Source: an uncultured Acidobacteriota bacterium (GTDB taxonomy: Bacteria > Acidobacteriota > UBA6911). From it: a DNA stretch of 64,000 bases. Positions 45,204 through 49,552 of the stretch are shown here, one piece after another (the stretch's first letter is position 1; every line of letters begins with the position of its first letter). The DNA lies in NCBI GenBank assembly GCA_963843575.1, contig CAWJKZ010000024.1, positions 160,001-224,000 on the forward strand, written 5' to 3'. The position numbers and the translations under genes were made by a program. A model generated the notes under the pieces. That model had not been told where the DNA came from. It searched no databases and was given only the letters and a program-made list of their open reading frames with translations.

Positions 45204-46310
45204 ATGAATACGATGCAGTTCTTCCTTGATCAGTACGAGAAGAACAAGGACCAGGGGCTCGACTATCTCAAGGTCGGGGACTACGAGCAGGCAGGTTACC
45301 ACCTGCTCCTCGCGGCGAAGTACCTGCTGACCGCGGCGCAGCGGTCGGAGCCGGGGCTCAAGAAAGTGAGACACGCGAAGGCGTTGAAGCTGCGCGAGCT
45401 CGCGCTCTCGGCGAAGGGTCGGACTCCCCCCAGGAAGGCTGCGGGGGCCAGGGACCAGGACGGCGATCTGACGCCCGAGAGCAAGTGGATTGTCTCCGAG
45501 AAGCCGAACGTCCGGTTCGACCAGGTCGCCGGCCTCGCGGACGTCAAGGAAGCGATCAACCTGCGCGTCATCCTGCCGTTTCGCAATCCCGACGCCGCGA
45601 AGCGCTTCAGGAAGAAGGCGGGGGGCGGCATCCTCCTGTACGGACCGCCGGGCACCGGCAAGACGATGATCGGCAAAGCGGTCGCGACCGAGCTCGACGC
45701 GCAGTTCCTCAACGTCAAGAGCTCGAACATCATGTCGCCGTGGGTCGGGGTGGCCGAGCAGAACCTCGCGCGGCTGTTCGAGGTGGCGCGCCGGTATCCC
45801 ATCTCGGTGATTTTCCTGGATGAGACCGAGGCCCTGGTCGGGAAGCGCGGCAGCCAGTCGACCGTGATGAACCGCGTAGTCCCGGAGTTCCTCTCGCAGG
45901 TCGACGGACTCGACCCGAAGGTGAACTGCATCCTGCTGATGGGGGCCACGAACCGGCCGTGGGACATGGACGAGGCGGCCCTGCGCACCGGGCGCTTCGG
46001 CGAGATGATCTACGTGGGTCTCCCCGATGCCGCGGCCCGCGAACAGATACTCCATTTCCACCTGGACGGCATCCCGATGGCGTCCGACATCGACCTCCCT
46101 GCCCTGGCGGCGAGGCTGGACGGCTTCAGCGGAGCGGACATCGCGGGTGTCTGCATCAAAGCGACCGATTTCCCCTTTCAGCGGCAGATCCGCTCGGGGG
46201 CCGACACGATTCTGACCAAGGAGGACCTGGACCGGGCCGCTGCGGAAGTCGTCCCGTCGGTGACCCAGGCCATGCTGGAGCGCTATCGCAAGTTCGCGGA
46301 GGCGAGGTAA
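45204..46310 (+). CDS. Vps4/CdvC-like AAA+ ATPase 1 with MIT-like N-terminus
   Basis: Three-helix N-terminus; [27 protein letters not shown] pore loop, FLDE, ATNRPW; single AAA module. Confidence 0.85.
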   Translation: [368 protein letters not shown]

Positions 46311-46334
46311 CGCCGCCCGCTTTGGAGTCGACCG

Positions 46335-47030
46335 ATGAGTGACCCCGTAAGCCACAGCCTCCCTGCCGCGCCGCGCTGGGGCGAACTCTTCCTCGAGCGG
46401 TTCGACCTGAACGTGCGCGCCTGCGGCGCCGTCGTGCACCCGGCCGACGGGACCGTGCTCAAGGTCAATCCGAAGATGCTGGGGCAAACTTTCCGCCGGG
46501 ACTTCGGCGAAGTGGTGCTCTTCTCGCTCTCCGCCGGCCTCATCGCCAGATCCCGCCTGCACCTGGCCGCCATCCGGCTGAACGACGGCGTCCCCGAGCC
46601 GGAACTCCTGCGCCGCGTGGGCGGTCCCGACGGACTCGATTTCGTGGGCGATCATTTTTACTCCGTCGGGTTGTTCGCGCCCGGCGGCTGGCCCGAAGAG
46701 TGGAAGGCACAGGCGGCGCTGCGCGGCAACGCGCTGTTCTACCTGGTCGAGAAGGGGGACGGAACCGGCTGGGGCGTGTTCGGCCCGGAAAACCCTCTCC
46801 TGCGGCTGTTCGACCCCGAGACGACCATCGAGAAGGCGGCCCGGGCGGCGCAGGCCCTCGCGGGGCACCCACGGCTCGTGATGCCGGGGGACCAGGTCGA
46901 AGCCGGCGCGTTCGCCGCGGAACTGCGCCTGGACGCGGAGGCCCTGGAGAAAGCGCTGGCAGCTTCGCAGGGGCGCTTCCACAAGATGGAGTACAAGGGC
47001 AAGACCTACATACAGCGGTCAATCCGGTAG
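46335..47030 (+). CDS. Hypothetical protein with possible C-terminal winged-helix-like domain
   Basis: Intact 231-aa ORF; tail AFAAELRLDAEALEKALAASQGRFHKMEYKGKTYI (helices then beta hairpin). Confidence 0.55.
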   Translation: MSDPVSHSLPAAPRWGELFLERFDLNVRACGAVVHPADGTVLKVNPKMLGQTFRRDFGEVVLFSLSAGLIARSRLHLAAIRLNDGVPEPELLRRVGGPDGLDFVGDHFYSVGLFAPGGWPEEWKAQAALRGNALFYLVEKGDGTGWGVFGPENPLLRLFDPETTIEKAARAAQALAGHPRLVMPGDQVEAGAFAAELRLDAEALEKALAASQGRFHKMEYKGKTYIQRSIR

Positions 47031-47038
47031 GAGGAATC

Positions 47039-47650: not shown

Positions 47651-47686
47651 TCCCAGCTATCACGATTCATCAAAGGAGATCGAATC

Positions 47687-48307
47687 ATGAACCTGATCGA
47701 AAAGCTGTTCAGCAAATCGCCCACCGCGGCGGACCTCCGGGTCCAGCTCAAGGAGATCGAAAGGGACCAGAAGAAGAAGCGGCGCGACCTCGACATCGTC
47801 GAGCGCAACAAGCAGCAGAAGGTCAAGGAAGCCGTCGCCGCAAAGAAGAATGGCAAACAGGAGGTGCTCCGGGACATCTTCCGGGAGATGCGGCAGATGG
47901 AGATCGAGAACGGCTATGCAAACGCCGACCTGCGCCGCCTGTCGCTGGCCAAGACCGCGCTGACGTCCTTCCTGCGCAAGATGGAGATGCTCGAGCGGAA
48001 GAAGGACCGGAAGAGCCTGCAGAACCTGATCGTGCGGTTCAAAGACAGCTCGATCCAGAAGGCGATCGACACGGCGGAAGTCGACGACGACACCTTCAAC
48101 GACATGCTGGAAGAGATCCTCGGCGAAGAGGAGTTGTCGGTCACGCAGGGGAGGGTGAAAGAAGATACCGGGTTTGCCGACTTCGACCGGGCGATCGGCG
48201 AGATGGCGAAGGCCGAGGAGGCCGGTTCGGACGAAGAGGATCTCAACAAGTTCCAGGAAGAGATCGACAAGGCCGTCCGGGCGGAAAAAGTGCGGGACGA
48301 GGCGTAG
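47687..48307 (+). CDS. ESCRT-III (Vps24/Vps2/CdvB)-like protein 3
   Basis: 206 aa, MNLIEKLFSK start, basic hairpin with AKKNGKQEV turn, acidic C-terminal half. Confidence 0.75.
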   Translation: MNLIEKLFSKSPTAADLRVQLKEIERDQKKKRRDLDIVERNKQQKVKEAVAAKKNGKQEVLRDIFREMRQMEIENGYANADLRRLSLAKTALTSFLRKMEMLERKKDRKSLQNLIVRFKDSSIQKAIDTAEVDDDTFNDMLEEILGEEELSVTQGRVKEDTGFADFDRAIGEMAKAEEAGSDEEDLNKFQEEIDKAVRAEKVRDEA

Positions 48308-48331
48308 CAGGGGTTCTGGAGGCCTGATCAC

Positions 48332-49552
48332 ATGGACGTCGACCTGAGCGGGCCGCTGAAAGTGTCGCTGGACAAGACACTGGCCGAGGCGCGGGAGCTC
48401 GAAGGGCAGAACAAGGGCCAGGAGGCGGCCGTCGCCTACCTGAAGGCGTCGAAGCTGATGAAGAGCTACGCCGACTACGCGCTCACCCGCGACGACCAGG
48501 TGCGGAGGCGCCAGAAGGCGCGGCAGTACCTGGAGTGGGCCGAGGCGCTCAAGGCCGGCAAGCGGCGGGTGGCCGCAGCCGCCGCGCCCGTGCGGGCTGC
48601 ACCGGTTGCCGGCGGCGTCAAGGAGGCCGCCGCCGGGGACGAGGAACAGTACTCGCGCGACATCGCGTCGCTGATCCACCGCAGCAAGGTGACGTGGGAC
48701 AAGATCGGCGGGCTCGAGGAGACCAAGCGTGAGATCAAGTTCACGTACGGGCTCGCGCTGGCCCGGAAACCGGAAGGGATGAAGCTCGCGGGGTGGCGCC
48801 GCATGCTCTTCTACGGGCCGCCCGGGACCGGCAAGACGTTGCTGGCGGCGGCTACCAGCAACGGGCTGGGCGCGACCTTCTTCAACGTCAAGGCGAGCAA
48901 CCTCCTGTCGAAGTACTTCGGCGAGTCCTCGAAGCTGATCACGGAGCTGTTCGACGCCGCCCGGAGCGAGGCCGACGAAGGCTTCGCCGTCATTTTCATC
49001 GACGAGGTCGAGTCGCTCTGCCTGCCGCGCGGCGACGGCTCGGAGAGCGGCGCCGAGAGGCGCGTCCTGTCGACGATCCTGTCGGAGCTCGACGGGCTGG
49101 CGGACAAGGGTGAGGACCGGTTCGTCCTGACCATCGCGGCGACCAACGCGCCGTGGGACCTCGACGACGCGGTGCTCAGCCGCTTTCAGAAGAGAATTTA
49201 CATCCCGCTGCCCGACGCCGAAGCGCGCAAGTCGATACTCGAGATCCTGCTGCTCAAGGCGGGCCACACGCTGGACTACCCGCTCGGGGAGGTCATCGAG
49301 CACTCGGAGTGGTTCAGCGGGCGCGACCTGGAACGGCTGGCGAACCAGGCGGTCAACGTCATGGTCGAGGAACTCAACAGCCAGATTCCGCGCTGCGTCG
49401 ACGCCGGGCGGGAGTCGATCGAGGGCTACCAGCTCAAGGTGCGCCCGCTCGGCAAGAGCGATTTCGACGAGGCGTTCCGGCGCATACGGGTGGACGTGGA
49501 CCGGCTGAAAAAGCTGGAGACGCGCTTTCGCGAGTTCGCAGAGAGCAATTGA
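48332..49552 (+). CDS. Vps4/CdvC-like AAA+ ATPase 2 with MIT-like N-terminus
   Basis: Three-helix N-terminus; [51 protein letters not shown]. Confidence 0.88.
   Translation: [406 protein letters not shown]

Follow-up and report, generated by a model that had tools for sequence, protein, structure and literature searches.

Two different Vps4-like ATPases in a probable bacterial equivalent of archaeal 'Main-clade' ESCRT systems

To our knowledge, ESCRT membrane-remodelling systems like those of archaea have been described as missing from bacteria. The DNA analysed here (the window, 64,000 nucleotides from an uncultured, soil-type Acidobacteriota bacterium) encodes two AAA ATPases that a first-pass annotation, made from the sequence alone, had called Vps4-like, and it raises the question of whether a bacterium carries such a system. 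Both genes lie in an operon of about 14 kb on the + strand (43690-57444). We consider this operon probably to be the bacterial equivalent of 'Main-clade' ESCRT systems of archaea; its likely parts are subunits of the Snf7/ESCRT-III family, MIT-AAA ATPases of the Vps4 type, a Ser/Thr kinase and an SPFH protein. A bacterial gene cluster would then match the archaeal ESCRT machinery part by part, including two different Vps4-type motor proteins.

Two AAA ATPases within one acidobacterial operon

The genes of the operon are listed in Table 1. Their order is the same in another Acidobacteriota MAG (locus L005), where ORFs of 304, 237 and 515 aa stand at the positions equivalent to the 287-aa, 231-aa and 502-aa proteins and a 701-aa ORF corresponds to the SPFH protein. 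That locus lacks the FGE-domain protein, which is thus not a constant part of the operon. The 287-aa and 231-aa proteins gave no family match in Pfam, NCBIfam or PADLOC, the 502-aa protein none in Pfam or NCBIfam and the 454-aa protein none in Pfam; the 287-aa protein has putative membrane segments, read from its sequence only. The SPFH protein matched Pfam Band_7 (3.2e-14), DZR (9.3e-14) and Zn_Ribbon_1 (7.2e-13). The gene after the kinase encodes an AcrB-type transporter on the opposite strand.

Table 1. Genes of the operon, in window positions
Feature	Position	Strand	Basis or remark
287-aa protein	43690..44553	+	first gene of the operon; C-terminal half hydrophobic
E3-1, ESCRT-III/Snf7-family protein (arCOG07402-like), 198 aa	44564..45160	+	directly 5' of ATPase 1
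ATPase 1, predicted MIT-like N-domain and single classic AAA module	45204..46310 (likely start 45213)	+	ORF, Pfam
231-aa protein	46335..47030	+	ORF between the two modules
E3-2, putative ESCRT-III-like helical protein, 203 aa	47039..47650	+	ORF, close Acidobacteriota homologues
E3-3, putative ESCRT-III-like helical protein, 206 aa	47687..48307	+	directly 5' of ATPase 2
ATPase 2, predicted MIT-like N-domain and single archaeal Vps4-type AAA module, 406 aa	48332..49552	+	ORF, Pfam
Protein with Cys-rich N-terminus and FGE-sulfatase (SUMF1-like) domain, 323 aa	49571..50542	+	Pfam PF03781, E 4.9e-31
502-aa protein	50673..52181	+	ORF
SPFH/Band-7 protein, 709 aa	52214..54343	+	double zinc ribbon, SPFH, long helical region, C-terminal zinc ribbon
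454-aa protein	54387..55751	+	ORF
Ser/Thr protein kinase, 551 aa	55789..57444	+	Pfam Pkinase 1.4e-53; + strand run ends here

The two ATPases are indeed distinct proteins, as first proposed: both are single-module ORFs, they share 33% identity, and the motifs quoted for them were found. Pfam PF00004 matched both (E 3e-34 for ATPase 1, 9e-36 for ATPase 2). The ORF of ATPase 1 spans 45162/45204-46310, and its true start is likely the ATG at 45213, since homologues start with MQF or MRF and the database copy has 365 aa. Counted over 368 aa from 45204, Walker A GPPGTGKT of ATPase 1 spans residues 147-154 (nt 45642-45665), followed by the pore loop SPWVG (178-182; nt 45735-45749), Walker B VIFLDE (202-207) and an 18-residue SRH motif (248-265; nt 45945-45998) that includes the Cdc48-type arginine fingers R261-x-G-R264. 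In ATPase 2, Walker A occupies residues 162-169 (nt 48815-48838), the pore loop SKYFG 193-197 (nt 48908-48922), Walker B VIFIDE 220-225 and a 16-residue motif 270-285 (nt 49139-49186). These motifs are family traits and not chance. R-x-G-R-F was invariant in 36/36 aligned relatives of ATPase 1 and S283-R284-F285 in 40/40 aligned relatives of ATPase 2; by regex, R-x-G-R-F was recovered in 73 of 120 ATPase-1 matches (the other 47 had no regex match) and S-R-F in 115 of 120 ATPase-2 matches (5 unmatched).

The first-pass annotation had contrasted the R-x-G-R spacing of Cdc48/FtsH-type proteins with a form two residues shorter in the Vps4/katanin/spastin clade. This rule holds in our reference set, in which Cdc48 D1/D2, PAN and FtsH carry R-x-G-R and katanin-like and haloarchaeal Vps4 proteins carry R-R. 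Alignment added a feature absent from that annotation: beyond being two residues shorter, ATPase 2 has a Ser at the position of the first arginine finger. This Ser is shared with the Vps4 of Thermococcus peptonophilus. The exchange is old, conserved and also present in Thermococcus Vps4, so it is probably compatible with single-arginine-finger activity. The predicted lack of a long beta-domain was confirmed for both proteins, as ATPase 1 and ATPase 2 have 61 and 79 aa, respectively, between sensor 2 and the C-terminus, and in the AlphaFold2 models this region is helical without a three-stranded sheet.

The same models (mean pLDDT 82.0 and 84.6) place three helices in front of a disordered linker and the AAA module. 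Together with profile comparisons, they indicate that the N-domains of both ATPases are MIT-like three-helix domains. The N-domain profile of ATPase 2 gave end-to-end matches to 10 MIT-containing PDB chains (E 7e-4 to 0.38), among them VPS4A/B, calpain-7 and chitin synthase; its top-scoring PDB matches were partial stretches of OGT TPR repeats. One of these MIT-containing chains was matched by the profile of ATPase 1 (E 0.0022), and the two N-domains matched each other in hhalign (91%, E 1.1e-6). In Pfam, MIT and Vps4_C reached only E 0.17 and 0.21 on ATPase 2 and gave no match on ATPase 1.

ATPase 2, the small proteins and their archaeal relatives

ATPase 2 and the T. peptonophilus Vps4, which is assigned to arCOG01307 in Tables S1/S2 of Makarova et al. 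(2024; PMC10936438), are 39% identical over their full length including the N-terminal domain (BLASTP, E 6e-85), and in a tblastn search of plasmids this Vps4 covered 100% of the query. The two proteins share an M-x-VDLSGPL start, LSRF and SKYFGESSK, and a ~20-aa insert is common to ATPase 2 and archaeal Vps4. In a careful maximum-likelihood (ML) tree (66 rows x 270 columns), 16 bacterial relatives of ATPase 2 and four archaeal Vps4 formed a clade with 100/99 support. These sequence comparisons show that ATPase 2 is part of a bacterial family with a wide distribution, and that archaeal Vps4 (arCOG01307) is the sister group of this family. Its description as Vps4-like is well founded on this clade, the full-length similarity and the MIT-type profile matches.

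Eukaryotic and crenarchaeal Vps4/CdvC resemble both window ATPases in their build, with a C-terminal helix after a single AAA module that a linker joins to an MIT-like N-domain. By fold, ATPase 2 matched yeast Vps4 and M. sedula Vps4 (for the latter, 34% identity and TM 0.85 on the target); in its fold and C-terminal matches p97 D2 was mixed with katanin, spastin and Vps4. Unlike those Vps4/CdvC proteins, the window ATPases have no beta-domain, and they carry S-R (ATPase 2) or R-x-G-R (ATPase 1) instead of R-R. The NCBIfam CdvC model scored 179 and 204 bits on them, far under its cut-off of 650 bits. ATPase 2 is also similar to the meiotic-clade AAA proteins katanin, spastin and fidgetin. They have in common ATN-x-PW-x-LD and an eight-residue motif, the C-terminal region measures 75-88 aa in three katanin-like references compared to 79 aa in ATPase 2, and katanin-like 1 was its best single-domain PDB match. 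However, ATPase 2 joins archaeal Vps4 and not the katanin-like rows in the tree, and its gene context is ESCRT-III-like and not tubulin-related.

Among the small proteins, E3-1 is homologous to an archaeal ESCRT-III/Snf7 protein, as sequence searches show. With T. peptonophilus WP_062390961 it shares 38% identity across 156 aa (BLASTP, E 5e-24); that protein was also its sole tblastn match in 7.3 Gb of plasmids (E 6e-8) and is labelled arCOG07402 'ESCRT-III/Snf7 family' in Tables S1/S2 of Makarova et al. (2024; PMC10936438). Pfam Snf7 was found at E<=0.01 in 19/80 members of the E3-1 family (best 5e-8); the window's own copy reached only E 0.71. None of the three window copies, E3-1, E3-2 and E3-3, was assigned a Pfam family, and Snf7 gave nothing for E3-2 or E3-3.

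E3-2 and E3-3 are putatively ESCRT-III-like. The N-terminus of E3-2, MSVMEKLRALF, resembles the M-G/N-L-L-D/E-K/R-F starts of archaeal Snf7-family genes at the equivalent position, and hhalign of E3-2 against the E3-1 family, the E3-3 family and an archaeal Snf7 set gave no significant match. E3-3 was colinear with the E3-1 family over 174 columns (hhalign probability 18.7%, E 0.0013) and matched archaeal and Chlorohelix Snf7-type proteins over 165 columns (17%, E 0.0015); overall, hhalign probabilities for E3-2 and E3-3 against ESCRT-III ranged from 0.6-19%. Only one of 132 homologues of E3-3 had a Pfam family, and in the ESM Atlas the rank-20 neighbour cluster of one homologue has Snf7 on 16% of its members. 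In a Vicinamibacterales MAG, homologues of E3-3 and ATPase 2 have consecutive accessions.

The layout of the operon is likewise similar to that of archaeal 'Main-clade' ESCRT loci (Makarova et al., 2024, mBio, PMC10936438). The locus on T. peptonophilus plasmid NZ_CP014751.1 encodes, besides the Vps4 and the arCOG07402 protein, two ~200-aa Snf7-family genes upstream and a Ser/Thr kinase. In a phmmer comparison with a 25-protein set, the window kinase matched this kinase (5.4e-42) and a Chlorohelix kinase (5e-40), values to be read with the general likeness of kinase domains in mind. Archaeal 'Main-clade' loci also combine an SPFH protein with a Ser/Thr kinase, and passages of Makarova et al. 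(2024; PMC10936438) describe Meth_adaptin ESCRT loci with SPFH proteins that contain a coiled coil and a zinc ribbon. Haloarchaeal and Thermococcus loci hold a kinase, PP2C, two Snf7-family genes and Vps4. A Chlorohelix plasmid has two ~200-aa genes followed by an ATPase-2-like gene, kinases and PP2C, with a 1059-aa SUMF1/EgtB/PvdO-family gene among kinases just upstream of the module. In contrast to the archaeal systems, the window host is a bacterium, and the window adds a second ATPase, the SPFH-zinc-ribbon protein, the FGE-domain protein and four proteins without a family match. No PP2C lies in its + strand gene run, and phmmer with the window proteins found no relative of arCOG09748 (wHTH) or arCOG08177.

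Bacterial systems with related parts appear in sections of Ravi et al. (2024, mSystems, PMC11237479), which report transfer of Vps4-like ATPases to bacteria, a two-domain AAA+ protein with an inactive first copy adjoining PspA, and bacterial Vps4-like genes in which a TPR-6TM protein takes the place of the snf7 partner. In common with our reading of the window is the idea of a dedicated AAA+ ATPase that serves bacterial ESCRT-III-superfamily proteins; different from the systems in these sections, the window has single-module MIT-AAA ATPases beside Snf7-family genes.

Two modules or one mixed ring

We propose that each ATPase would act as a hexameric unfoldase. Its MIT-like domain may bind the partner or partners encoded upstream of it through their acidic C-terminal helix; ATPase 1 would presumably pair with E3-1 and ATPase 2 with E3-2/E3-3. 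The ATPases would thread these partners through the pore, lined by the SPWVG or SKYFG loops, and so remodel or disassemble membrane-bound polymers at a site that the SPFH-zinc-ribbon protein and the kinase might organise or regulate. Judged from the comparative data, two modules that work one after the other, or on separate subunits of a common polymer, are the most likely arrangement, and preferred over an obligate mixed ring. The first-pass annotation had left this choice open. Its two-module option is favoured by the occurrence of an ATPase-2 module without ATPase 1 on the Chlorohelix plasmid and in T. peptonophilus, and by a gene pair that recurs in Thermococcales, in which an arCOG07402 ESCRT-III gene precedes a second arCOG01307 Vps4. 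Table S2 of Makarova et al. (2024; PMC10936438) lists this pair for T. gammatolerans (WP_015858583/WP_015858582), T. profundus (WP_088858755/WP_088858756) and T. sp. 4557 (WP_014011603/WP_014011602). As likened from the table entries, a 188-aa protein followed by a ~383-aa ATPase corresponds to E3-1/ATPase 1 in order and size. Kinase and HflC/SPFH genes lie close by, and another Vps4 is found in the same neighbourhood.

It is unlikely, if still the best of the alternatives, that ATPase 1 and ATPase 2 form one obligate mixed (e.g. alternating) hexamer, a single motor for all three small proteins in which the complete arginine fingers of ATPase 1 would serve ATP bound on ATPase 2. The Ser in all 40 aligned relatives of ATPase 2 would suit such a ring, as would the co-occurrence of the two genes: strong matches to both are confined to the same 2/401 sampled genomes of the phylum, at least 10 contigs have homologues of both (judged only from contigs of equal length in the two match tables), and an ATPase-2-like and an ATPase-1-like gene have consecutive accessions in a Schekmanbacteria MAG. 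However, the 375-kb Chlorohelix plasmid carries two small genes followed by an ATPase-2-type gene and no relative of ATPase 1, whose sole match on that plasmid is this same ATPase-2-type gene (33% identity). Furthermore, the only Vps4 of T. peptonophilus has this Ser too, and each ATPase in the window comes after its own small gene or genes.

Origin of ATPase 1

The two-module reading takes ATPase 1 for a Vps4 relative, and here similarity searches and trees diverge. Its nearest solved structures, by pairwise as well as fold comparison, are p97/Cdc48 D2 (about 30-34% identity) and PAN, and no Vps4, katanin or spastin chain was among the structure matches listed. In the 66 x 270 ML tree, by contrast, relatives of ATPase 1, katanin-like references, archaeal Vps4 and relatives of ATPase 2 formed a clade against Cdc48 D2 (100/98). 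An earlier tree of 85 rows gave 100/97, and the clade was kept (SH-aLRT 100) after the SRH and C-terminal columns had been dropped. These trees comprised four archaeal Vps4 and three katanin-like references, without TACK CdvC, Asgard or eukaryotic Vps4, spastin, fidgetin or Msp1, and the stems of both query families are long (about 0.9; 0.9-0.96 for ATPase 1). Grouping ATPase 1 with Cdc48 D2 was rejected by the AU test (dlnL 26.45, p 0.013). The two ATPases did not both group with generic bacterial AAA proteins unrelated to Vps4. The tabulated alignment showed derived motifs in common (ATN-x-PW, pore loops, pore-loop 2), and ATPase 1 shares a nine-residue motif, KPNV-x-F-x-x-VAGL and IYVGLPD with katanin-like and Vps4 rows.

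The data fit a reading in which the Vps4/katanin lineage contributed a second paralog, ATPase 1, which branches deeper and would have kept the ancestral Cdc48-type arginine-finger spacing. The earlier suggestion that it may be evolutionarily intermediate agrees with the trees and the AU test, which put it inside the Vps4/katanin clade and apart from Cdc48 D2; the p97/Cdc48 D2 and PAN matches speak against this, and its rank within the clade is less clear (AU p 0.58 for ATPase 1 in a clade with Vps4). Alternatively, ATPase 1 might be a Cdc48-D2/PAN-like unfoldase with an independent three-helix N-domain, recruited beside an ESCRT-III-like gene, its tree position being an artefact of long branches and sparse references. 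We regard this as improbable. The spacing of its fingers, the structure matches, the single MIT chain matched by its N-domain and the long stem would agree with it, as would the NCBIfam scores (CDC48 208 bits, CdvC 204 bits), although these do not separate Cdc48/CdvC-type AAA families. Against it stand the clade support, the AU test, the shared motifs, the homology of its N-domain to that of ATPase 2, and the same gene pair with arCOG01307 Vps4 paralogs in Thermococcales. Cdc48/p97/VAT proteins have a double-psi-barrel N-domain and two rings; ATPase 1, at 365 aa, has only one AAA module and an N-domain of three helices.

Finally, a mobile stress or conflict system, for instance one for phage defence or protein quality control, in which AAA unfoldases and coiled-coil proteins are simply employed and no ESCRT-like membrane remodelling takes place, would explain the very patchy distribution in the phylum, the plasmid-borne relatives in Chlorohelix, Thermococcus and haloarchaea, the generic IetA/TRIP13 AAA matches in PADLOC (E 2e-31 to 3e-33), the many kinases flanking the Chlorohelix locus and the fusion of E3-1 relatives in other organisms to FtsK or RuvB ATPases, but is highly improbable, as the non-ATPase genes have no PADLOC family, the IetA scores lie far under those of CdvC and CDC48, an SPFH membrane-scaffold gene lies within the operon, and the components correspond one by one to archaeal ESCRT loci as classed by Makarova et al. 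(2024; PMC10936438).

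The operon and placement of ATPase 2

Twelve genes on the + strand follow each other in a tight run from 43690 to 57444, with intergenic gaps of 8-130 nt. Another Acidobacteriota metagenome-assembled genome (MAG; locus L005) has the identical gene order, except that the FGE gene is missing. The two AAA ATPases of the operon are 33% identical over 311 columns and both carry Pfam PF00004 (E 3e-34 in ATPase 1, 9e-36 in ATPase 2). All motifs that the first-pass annotation had quoted for them were recovered, including the pore loops SPWVG in ATPase 1 and SKYFG in ATPase 2. Since relatives of ATPase 1 begin with MQF or MRF, its start is likely at 45213; the database copy has 365 aa.

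Genes of the operon and its boundaries, with positions in the window
Feature	Position	Strand	Length	Remark
Upstream boundary	42394-43548	-		Amidohydro_2 gene, E 5.6e-21
Gene 1		+	287 aa	hydrophobic tail
Gene 2 (E3-1)		+	198 aa	small protein before ATPase 1
Gene 3 (ATPase 1)	45204-46310	+		complete ORF
Gene 4		+	231 aa	no assigned family
Gene 5 (E3-2)		+	203 aa	small protein before ATPase 2
Gene 6 (E3-3)		+	206 aa	small protein before ATPase 2
Gene 7 (ATPase 2)	48332-49552	+	406 aa	complete ORF
Gene 8		+		FGE-sulfatase domain
Gene 9		+	502 aa	no assigned family
Gene 10		+	709 aa	double-zinc-ribbon/SPFH/zinc-ribbon
Gene 11		+	454 aa	no assigned family
Gene 12		+		Ser/Thr kinase
Downstream boundary	57673-60984	-		AcrB/RND transporter gene, E 9.6e-74

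A PLSDB plasmid protein search with ATPase 2 revealed a relative on a plasmid of Ca. Chlorohelix allophototropha (46.8% identity), haloarchaeal Vps4-like genes, and the Vps4 of the Thermococcus peptonophilus plasmid NZ_CP014751.1, which aligned to 100% of ATPase 2. By BLASTP, this Thermococcus protein (WP_062390964) is 39% identical to ATPase 2 over the full length (E 6e-85), and the two have in common the N-terminal M-x-VDLSGPL, the SKYFGESSK pore loop and L-S-R-F. Tables S1 and S2 of Makarova et al. (2024, mBio, PMC10936438) assign it to arCOG01307 Vps4, and the neighbours they list are arCOG08177, arCOG09748 (wHTH), two Snf7-family proteins, a kinase, a PP2C phosphatase and arCOG07402 ‘ESCRT-III/Snf7 family’.

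The first-pass annotation had called ATPase 2 Vps4-like, and a maximum likelihood tree bears this out. The references were metagenome proteins labelled by HMM, namely 10 Cdc48 (entered as separate D1 and D2 rows), 5 PAN, 6 FtsH and 3 katanin-like proteins, of which one scored 387 bits to human katanin; the FtsH of the genome itself was added. Archaeal Vps4 was represented by four rows; TACK, Asgard and eukaryotic Vps4 and the second Thermococcales Vps4 were absent. Those references that had been taken from metagenome and viral scans with generic P-loop patterns belong to other AAA families and were not treated as relatives. The second of our two careful trees (IQ-TREE LG+C20+F+G4 PMSF, 66 rows x 270 columns, outgroup FtsH) had the query families trimmed to 15 rows each and four domain rows of two Cdc48 proteins (L018, L099) removed. 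In this tree the four archaeal Vps4 are the sister group of 16 bacterial ATPase-2 relatives with a branch support of 100/99, and the combined clade stands apart from Cdc48 D2, D1, PAN and FtsH. The column table revealed three stretches specific to ATPase 2 and archaeal Vps4, namely the lead-in S-x-x-V-T-W-D-x-I-G-G-L, the pore-loop 2 E-x-A-x-R-R-x-L-x-T-L-L-x-E-L-x-G and T-N-x-P-W-D-L-D. A fourth feature specific to ATPase 2 and the four archaeal Vps4 is an insert of about 20 residues before the last two helices, modelled as short helices.

The adjacent R-R fingers of the Vps4/meiotic clade were not found in ATPase 2, where the corresponding residues are S283-R284. S-R-F is unvarying in all 40 aligned relatives, and a regex scan of the best 120 ATPase-2 matches found it in 115, leaving 5 unmatched. 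In the reference alignment the position of this Ser is that of the first arginine finger in every other group, and ATPase 2 therefore has one arginine finger. Among arCOG01307 members, the T. peptonophilus protein has S-R like ATPase 2, whereas three haloarchaeal members have R-R; hence, the R-R feature is not uniform across archaeal Vps4. Written out, the split is L-S-R-F in Thermococcus (L157 8001-9182) versus R-R-R-F in the haloarchaeal loci L158, L160 and L161, and the passages of the literature on these systems that we consulted make no mention of it.

Structure and score comparisons were less specific. Foldseek with the AlphaFold2 model of ATPase 2 (mean pLDDT 82.0) placed Arabidopsis CDC48A at the top (E 1.1e-20), followed by near-equal matches to katanin-like 1, p97, M. 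sedula Vps4 (rank 5, TM 0.85 on target, 34% identity), FIGNL1, yeast Vps4 and spastin, an outcome not specific to Vps4. Whole-protein phmmer rankings against the PDB are inflated for the two-domain p97, and we reran the parts from the SRH (the region bearing the arginine fingers) to the C-terminus separately. For ATPase 2 this part matched katanin-like 1, a Cdc48, spastin and p97 within 7 bits, and no Vps4 was in the best 60 matches listed. We also rejected curated HMM scores as a classifier: a genuine katanin-like control scored CDC48 (234 bits) above PAN (214) and CdvC (210), and the scores are therefore non-discriminating for both ATPases. Taken by its sequence, ATPase 2 belongs to a bacterial branch of the Vps4 lineage. 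An ESCRT-III gene lies in its neighbourhood, the arCOG07402 homologue E3-1, which is found 3.2 kb upstream in the same operon.

ATPase 1 and its Cdc48-type fingers

The SRH of ATPase 1 reads L-R261-T-G-R264-F, and the R, G, R and F are unvarying in 36 of 36 aligned relatives. Among the best 120 ATPase-1 matches a regex scan found R-x-G-R-F in 73; the other 47 were unmatched by the regex and were not inspected. This R-x-G-R aligned with the R-x-G-R of Cdc48, PAN and FtsH, as had been proposed from the finger spacing, and the two-residue-shorter SRH with adjacent arginines typical of the Vps4/meiotic group was not found in ATPase 1. With the whole protein as well as with its C-terminal part, phmmer matches in the PDB were all of the p97/Cdc48 type, and Foldseek with the AlphaFold2 model (mean pLDDT 84.6) gave only p97/Cdc48 chains and PAN in the best 49 matches listed. 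The tandem AAA modules behind a double-psi-barrel N-domain were not found in ATPase 1. Within its 365-368 aa, PF00004 matches a single stretch, the TIGR01243 score of 208 bits falls short of the cut-off of 803, and the N-domain is helical in the model.

Trees place ATPase 1 elsewhere. From a first quick tree, 5 of 90 rows (phage-type ‘RRF’ AAA and the long-branch protein L108) were dropped after long-branch warnings. The first careful tree (85 rows x 273 columns) united both query families with the katanin-like rows at 100/97, with Cdc48 D2 next out; inside this clade, ATPase 1 joined the katanin-like rows at 88/50. The Vps4/katanin clade was kept (SH-aLRT 100) in a quick tree of 220 columns, from which the SRH and post-lid columns had been removed, and forcing ATPase 1 together with Cdc48 D2 cost 26.45 log-likelihood units (AU p 0.013). 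The second tree had ATPase 1 basal to (katanin-like, (archaeal Vps4, ATPase 2)); support was 100/98 for the clade as a whole and 86/67 within it. A constraint uniting ATPase 1, ATPase 2 and archaeal Vps4 was equal or slightly better (lnL +3.3, AU p 0.58). The earlier description of ATPase 1 as Vps4-like is supported as far as membership of the Vps4/katanin clade is concerned, but its exact place there varies between analyses. Derived stretches common to ATPase 1 and the Vps4/katanin rows are A-T-N-R-P-W-D-M-D (with P-W, not P-D/N), K-P-N-V-x-F-x-x-V-A-G-L and I-Y-V-G-L-P-D.

An ancestral similarity to Cdc48 D2 combined with a phylogenetic affinity to Vps4/katanin is what one would expect of a protein that branched off early in the lineage. 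The mixed signals could also be produced by long-branch effects with few references, and the stems of both query families are indeed long (about 0.9). On the thin sampling available, the data support ATPase 1 as a probable second MIT-AAA paralog with Cdc48-type fingers inside the Vps4/katanin clade.

As a side observation, an IMG/VR contig of 135 kb labelled ‘viral’ encodes a 761-aa protein (L108 2482-4767) with a meiotic-type SRH (ATNYPWEIDEAILRRF...); its branch in the first tree was very long (2.57).

MIT-like domains and the small putative partner proteins

Pfam MIT made no call on either ATPase (best E 0.17, on ATPase 2). We compared N-domain profiles, built from 20 sequences for ATPase 2 and 18 for ATPase 1, with PDB sequences. 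The ATPase-2 profile gave 49 PDB rows at E<=10. Its top scores were partial, repeated matches to OGT TPR repeats, none of which passes as a single stretch. End-to-end rows with named natural proteins were all MIT-containing (10 chains, E 7e-4 to 0.38), comprising chitin synthase 1 (6.9e-4), calpain-7 (0.031), VPS4A (0.025, 0.031) and VPS4B/SKD1 (0.0035, 0.0066, 0.02, 0.038, 0.1, 0.38). The ATPase-1 profile had a single match, the chitin synthase chain 2mpk (E 0.0022), which we take to be an MIT domain. Aligned with each other by hhalign, the two profiles reached a probability of 91% (E 1.1e-6) over 66 columns. In the AlphaFold2 models, ATPase 2 starts with helices 6-25, 29-47 and 53-75, and ATPase 1 with three long helices (pLDDT about 88-97); a low-confidence linker follows in both (81-101, low-confidence/disordered, and 73-86, respectively) and leads into the AAA module. 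We conclude firmly that the N-domain of ATPase 2 is MIT-like, and by homology that of ATPase 1 is probably so as well. The beta-domain in the small subdomain of eukaryotic and crenarchaeal Vps4 is the Vta1-binding element. Its absence, already noted from the sequence, was seen in both ATPases, whose models are all helix past the lid helix, with tails of 61 aa (ATPase 1) and 79 aa (ATPase 2).

A search with E3-1 at E<=1e-3 gave 335 cluster representatives out of 1.84 billion. When 80 full-length family members were aligned, 19 of them matched Pfam Snf7 (PF03357) at E<=0.01 (best 5e-8); the window’s own E3-1 stayed below threshold. The sole E3-1 match in the whole plasmid collection (E 6e-8) was T. 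peptonophilus WP_062390961, which is 38% identical over 156 residues (E 5e-24) and appears in the tables of Makarova et al. (2024, PMC10936438) as arCOG07402 ‘ESCRT-III/Snf7 family’. On these sequence matches, E3-1 is an ESCRT-III/Snf7-family protein. For E3-2 and E3-3, hhalign probabilities were 0.2-19% overall; E3-3 gave colinear but weak alignments (17-19%, E about 0.001), and E3-2 nothing significant. An Atlas look-up of an E3-3 homologue returned one neighbour cluster in which 16% of the members carry Snf7. The N-termini of both proteins and their place just upstream of a Vps4-type gene are like those of the Snf7-gene pairs of the Thermococcus, haloarchaeal and Chlorohelix loci, and we regard E3-2 and E3-3 as candidates only for ESCRT-III-like proteins.

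PspA/Vipp1 (PF04012) had no match up to E 10 on any of the three small proteins, and a genome-wide scan found PF04012 matches only on contigs other than the window’s. The best of these (C14:575336-575647, - strand, L014; E 4.1e-7) covers profile positions 2-103 only and has an in-frame TGA and a 117-aa open frame; it could be a disrupted pspA or the product of a misassembly. Outside the operon, a 269-aa frame at C13:249987-250304 (L011) matches Pfam Snf7 weakly (E 0.0019, 19.8 bits).

Two acidic conserved segments were observed in the tails of the E3-1 family (alignment A1), (V/I)-(S/T)-D-x-E-(I/L)-D-x-(L/M)-I and D-x-E-I-x-x-G-L-x-x-I-E-x-E-L. Hydrophobic residues in the second are spaced as in an amphipathic docking helix, which makes it a candidate for one; its MIM1-like pattern I-x-x-G-L-x-x-I-E-x-E-L was not used as evidence. 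Separately, seven proteins of 444-888 aa (P0478, P0485, P0490, P0500-P0502, P0505) have an E3-1-like N-terminal domain fused to FtsK/SpoIIIE or RuvB-type ATPases, and the N-terminal part of one fusion matches Pfam Snf7 (E 3.8e-4). A Snf7-like module fused to a different motor may represent a separate system.

Two probable modules, distribution and meaning

The first-pass annotation had left the choice between two modules and one mixed ring. We favour two modules able to exist apart, since each ATPase gene of the window is directly preceded by its own small gene(s), a single motor occurs on the Chlorohelix plasmid and in T. peptonophilus, and Thermococcales have pairs of arCOG07402 and Vps4 genes. 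The Chlorohelix plasmid encodes two proteins of about 200 aa, an ATPase-2-type protein, kinases, an FGE-family protein and a PP2C. Its 375 kb hold no ATPase-1 relative, the sole match to ATPase 1 being the ATPase-2-type gene at 33%, and T. peptonophilus has one Vps4. Two arCOG01307 genes occur in Thermococcales neighbourhoods of Table S2 of PMC10936438 (T. gammatolerans, T. profundus, T. sp. 4557), and one of them comes directly after arCOG07402, near kinases, HflC/SPFH and NfeD. By this listing, the window has the same arrangement, with E3-1 before ATPase 1 and the SPFH and kinase genes further downstream. An obligate mixed ring would fit the missing arginine finger of ATPase 2, the joint occurrence of both ATPase genes in 2 of the 401 sampled genomes and their adjacency in a Schekmanbacteria MAG; it is less favoured, however, given the ATPase-2-type gene without an ATPase-1 relative on the Chlorohelix plasmid and the single Vps4 of T. 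peptonophilus. No known anti-phage system was recognised by PADLOC 2.0, which gave only generic AAA families (IetA, TRIP13, mad8) on the ATPases and none on the 8 other proteins scanned.

In the proposed mechanism, the cytoplasmic membrane would carry polymers of the small proteins, whose acidic C-terminal helices may be bound by the MIT-like domains. The ATPases, as hexamers, would then thread subunits through the pore, so that the polymer is remodelled or recycled. The SPFH-zinc-ribbon protein and the kinase might scaffold or regulate this process, as passages of PMC10936438 suggest for archaeal loci.

The closest records to the window genes are Acidobacteriota/Vicinamibacterales MAGs, and a locus search with a single protein returned four close Acidobacteriota loci only. 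In 401 sampled genomes of Acidobacteriota, ATPase 2 had a close match in two, and ATPase 1 had strong matches (E below 1e-180) in the same two; the system is thus rare and patchy within its own phylum. Three more genomes matched ATPase 1 at E 1e-62 to 1e-65 (38-43% identity, ORFs of 461-791 aa), which we read as probable other AAA families. Both ATPase families are large, with members named from Schekmanbacteria, Chloroflexota, Planctomycetota, Sedimentisphaerales and Sumerlaeota. A sequencing-run search found small DNA shares (0.05-0.08) in soil and sediment and listed no RNA runs carrying the operon.

Passages of a 2025 review describe a Vps4-like ATPase as seemingly absent in bacteria (PMC7619361). 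This absence underlies the inference that ancestral ESCRT-III lacked a dedicated motor. In the parts of Ravi et al. (2024, PMC11237479) that we consulted, Vps4-like ATPases were transferred to bacteria with a TPR-6TM gene in place of snf7, and bacterial PspA/Snf7 genes adjoin two-domain AAA+ proteins. In the texts covered, our full-text literature search found neither bacterial Snf7-family genes coupled to single-module MIT-AAA Vps4-type ATPases nor a description of the ATPase-1 family. The kind of system is known from archaea; new are the bacterial host, the two motors, the single-finger Vps4 type and the R-x-G-R type.

With its relatives in Acidobacteriota, Chloroflexota, Schekmanbacteria, Planctomycetota and Sumerlaeota, the operon places a bacterial sister family of archaeal Vps4 beside Snf7-family genes. 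If this family is ancient, the timing of the motor joining the polymer must be reconstructed anew; if it was transferred, it would be a natural experiment in which an ESCRT machine moved into a bacterial, possibly diderm, cell. The ATPase-1 family is a concrete candidate for the Cdc48-to-Vps4 transition, and the conserved Ser-for-Arg of ATPase 2 and Thermococcus Vps4 offers a testable arginine-finger variant. A far bolder reading, which we consider improbable, is that Vps4-plus-ESCRT-III machines are not an archaeal invention. Bacteria would then hold both an old, widespread Vps4 sister (the ATPase-2 family) and a surviving ‘missing link’ (the ATPase-1 family, with MIT domain and ESCRT-III partner and Cdc48-type fingers). 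In that case the transition from Cdc48 to Vps4, like the pairing of motor and polymer, would either be older than the last archaeal ancestor or have a bacterial origin.

Ca. Chlorohelix allophototropha is grown in enrichment culture and is an organism where the system could be tested. Its module (L159 NZ_CP128401.1 361000-375274; L156 1-14392) is flanked by at least 6 Ser/Thr or protein kinase genes, a 1059-aa SUMF1/EgtB/PvdO-family gene and a PP2C gene. As the window operon and the Chlorohelix locus both have a gene of the FGE/SUMF1 type and a kinase, this domain may be a recurrent partner.
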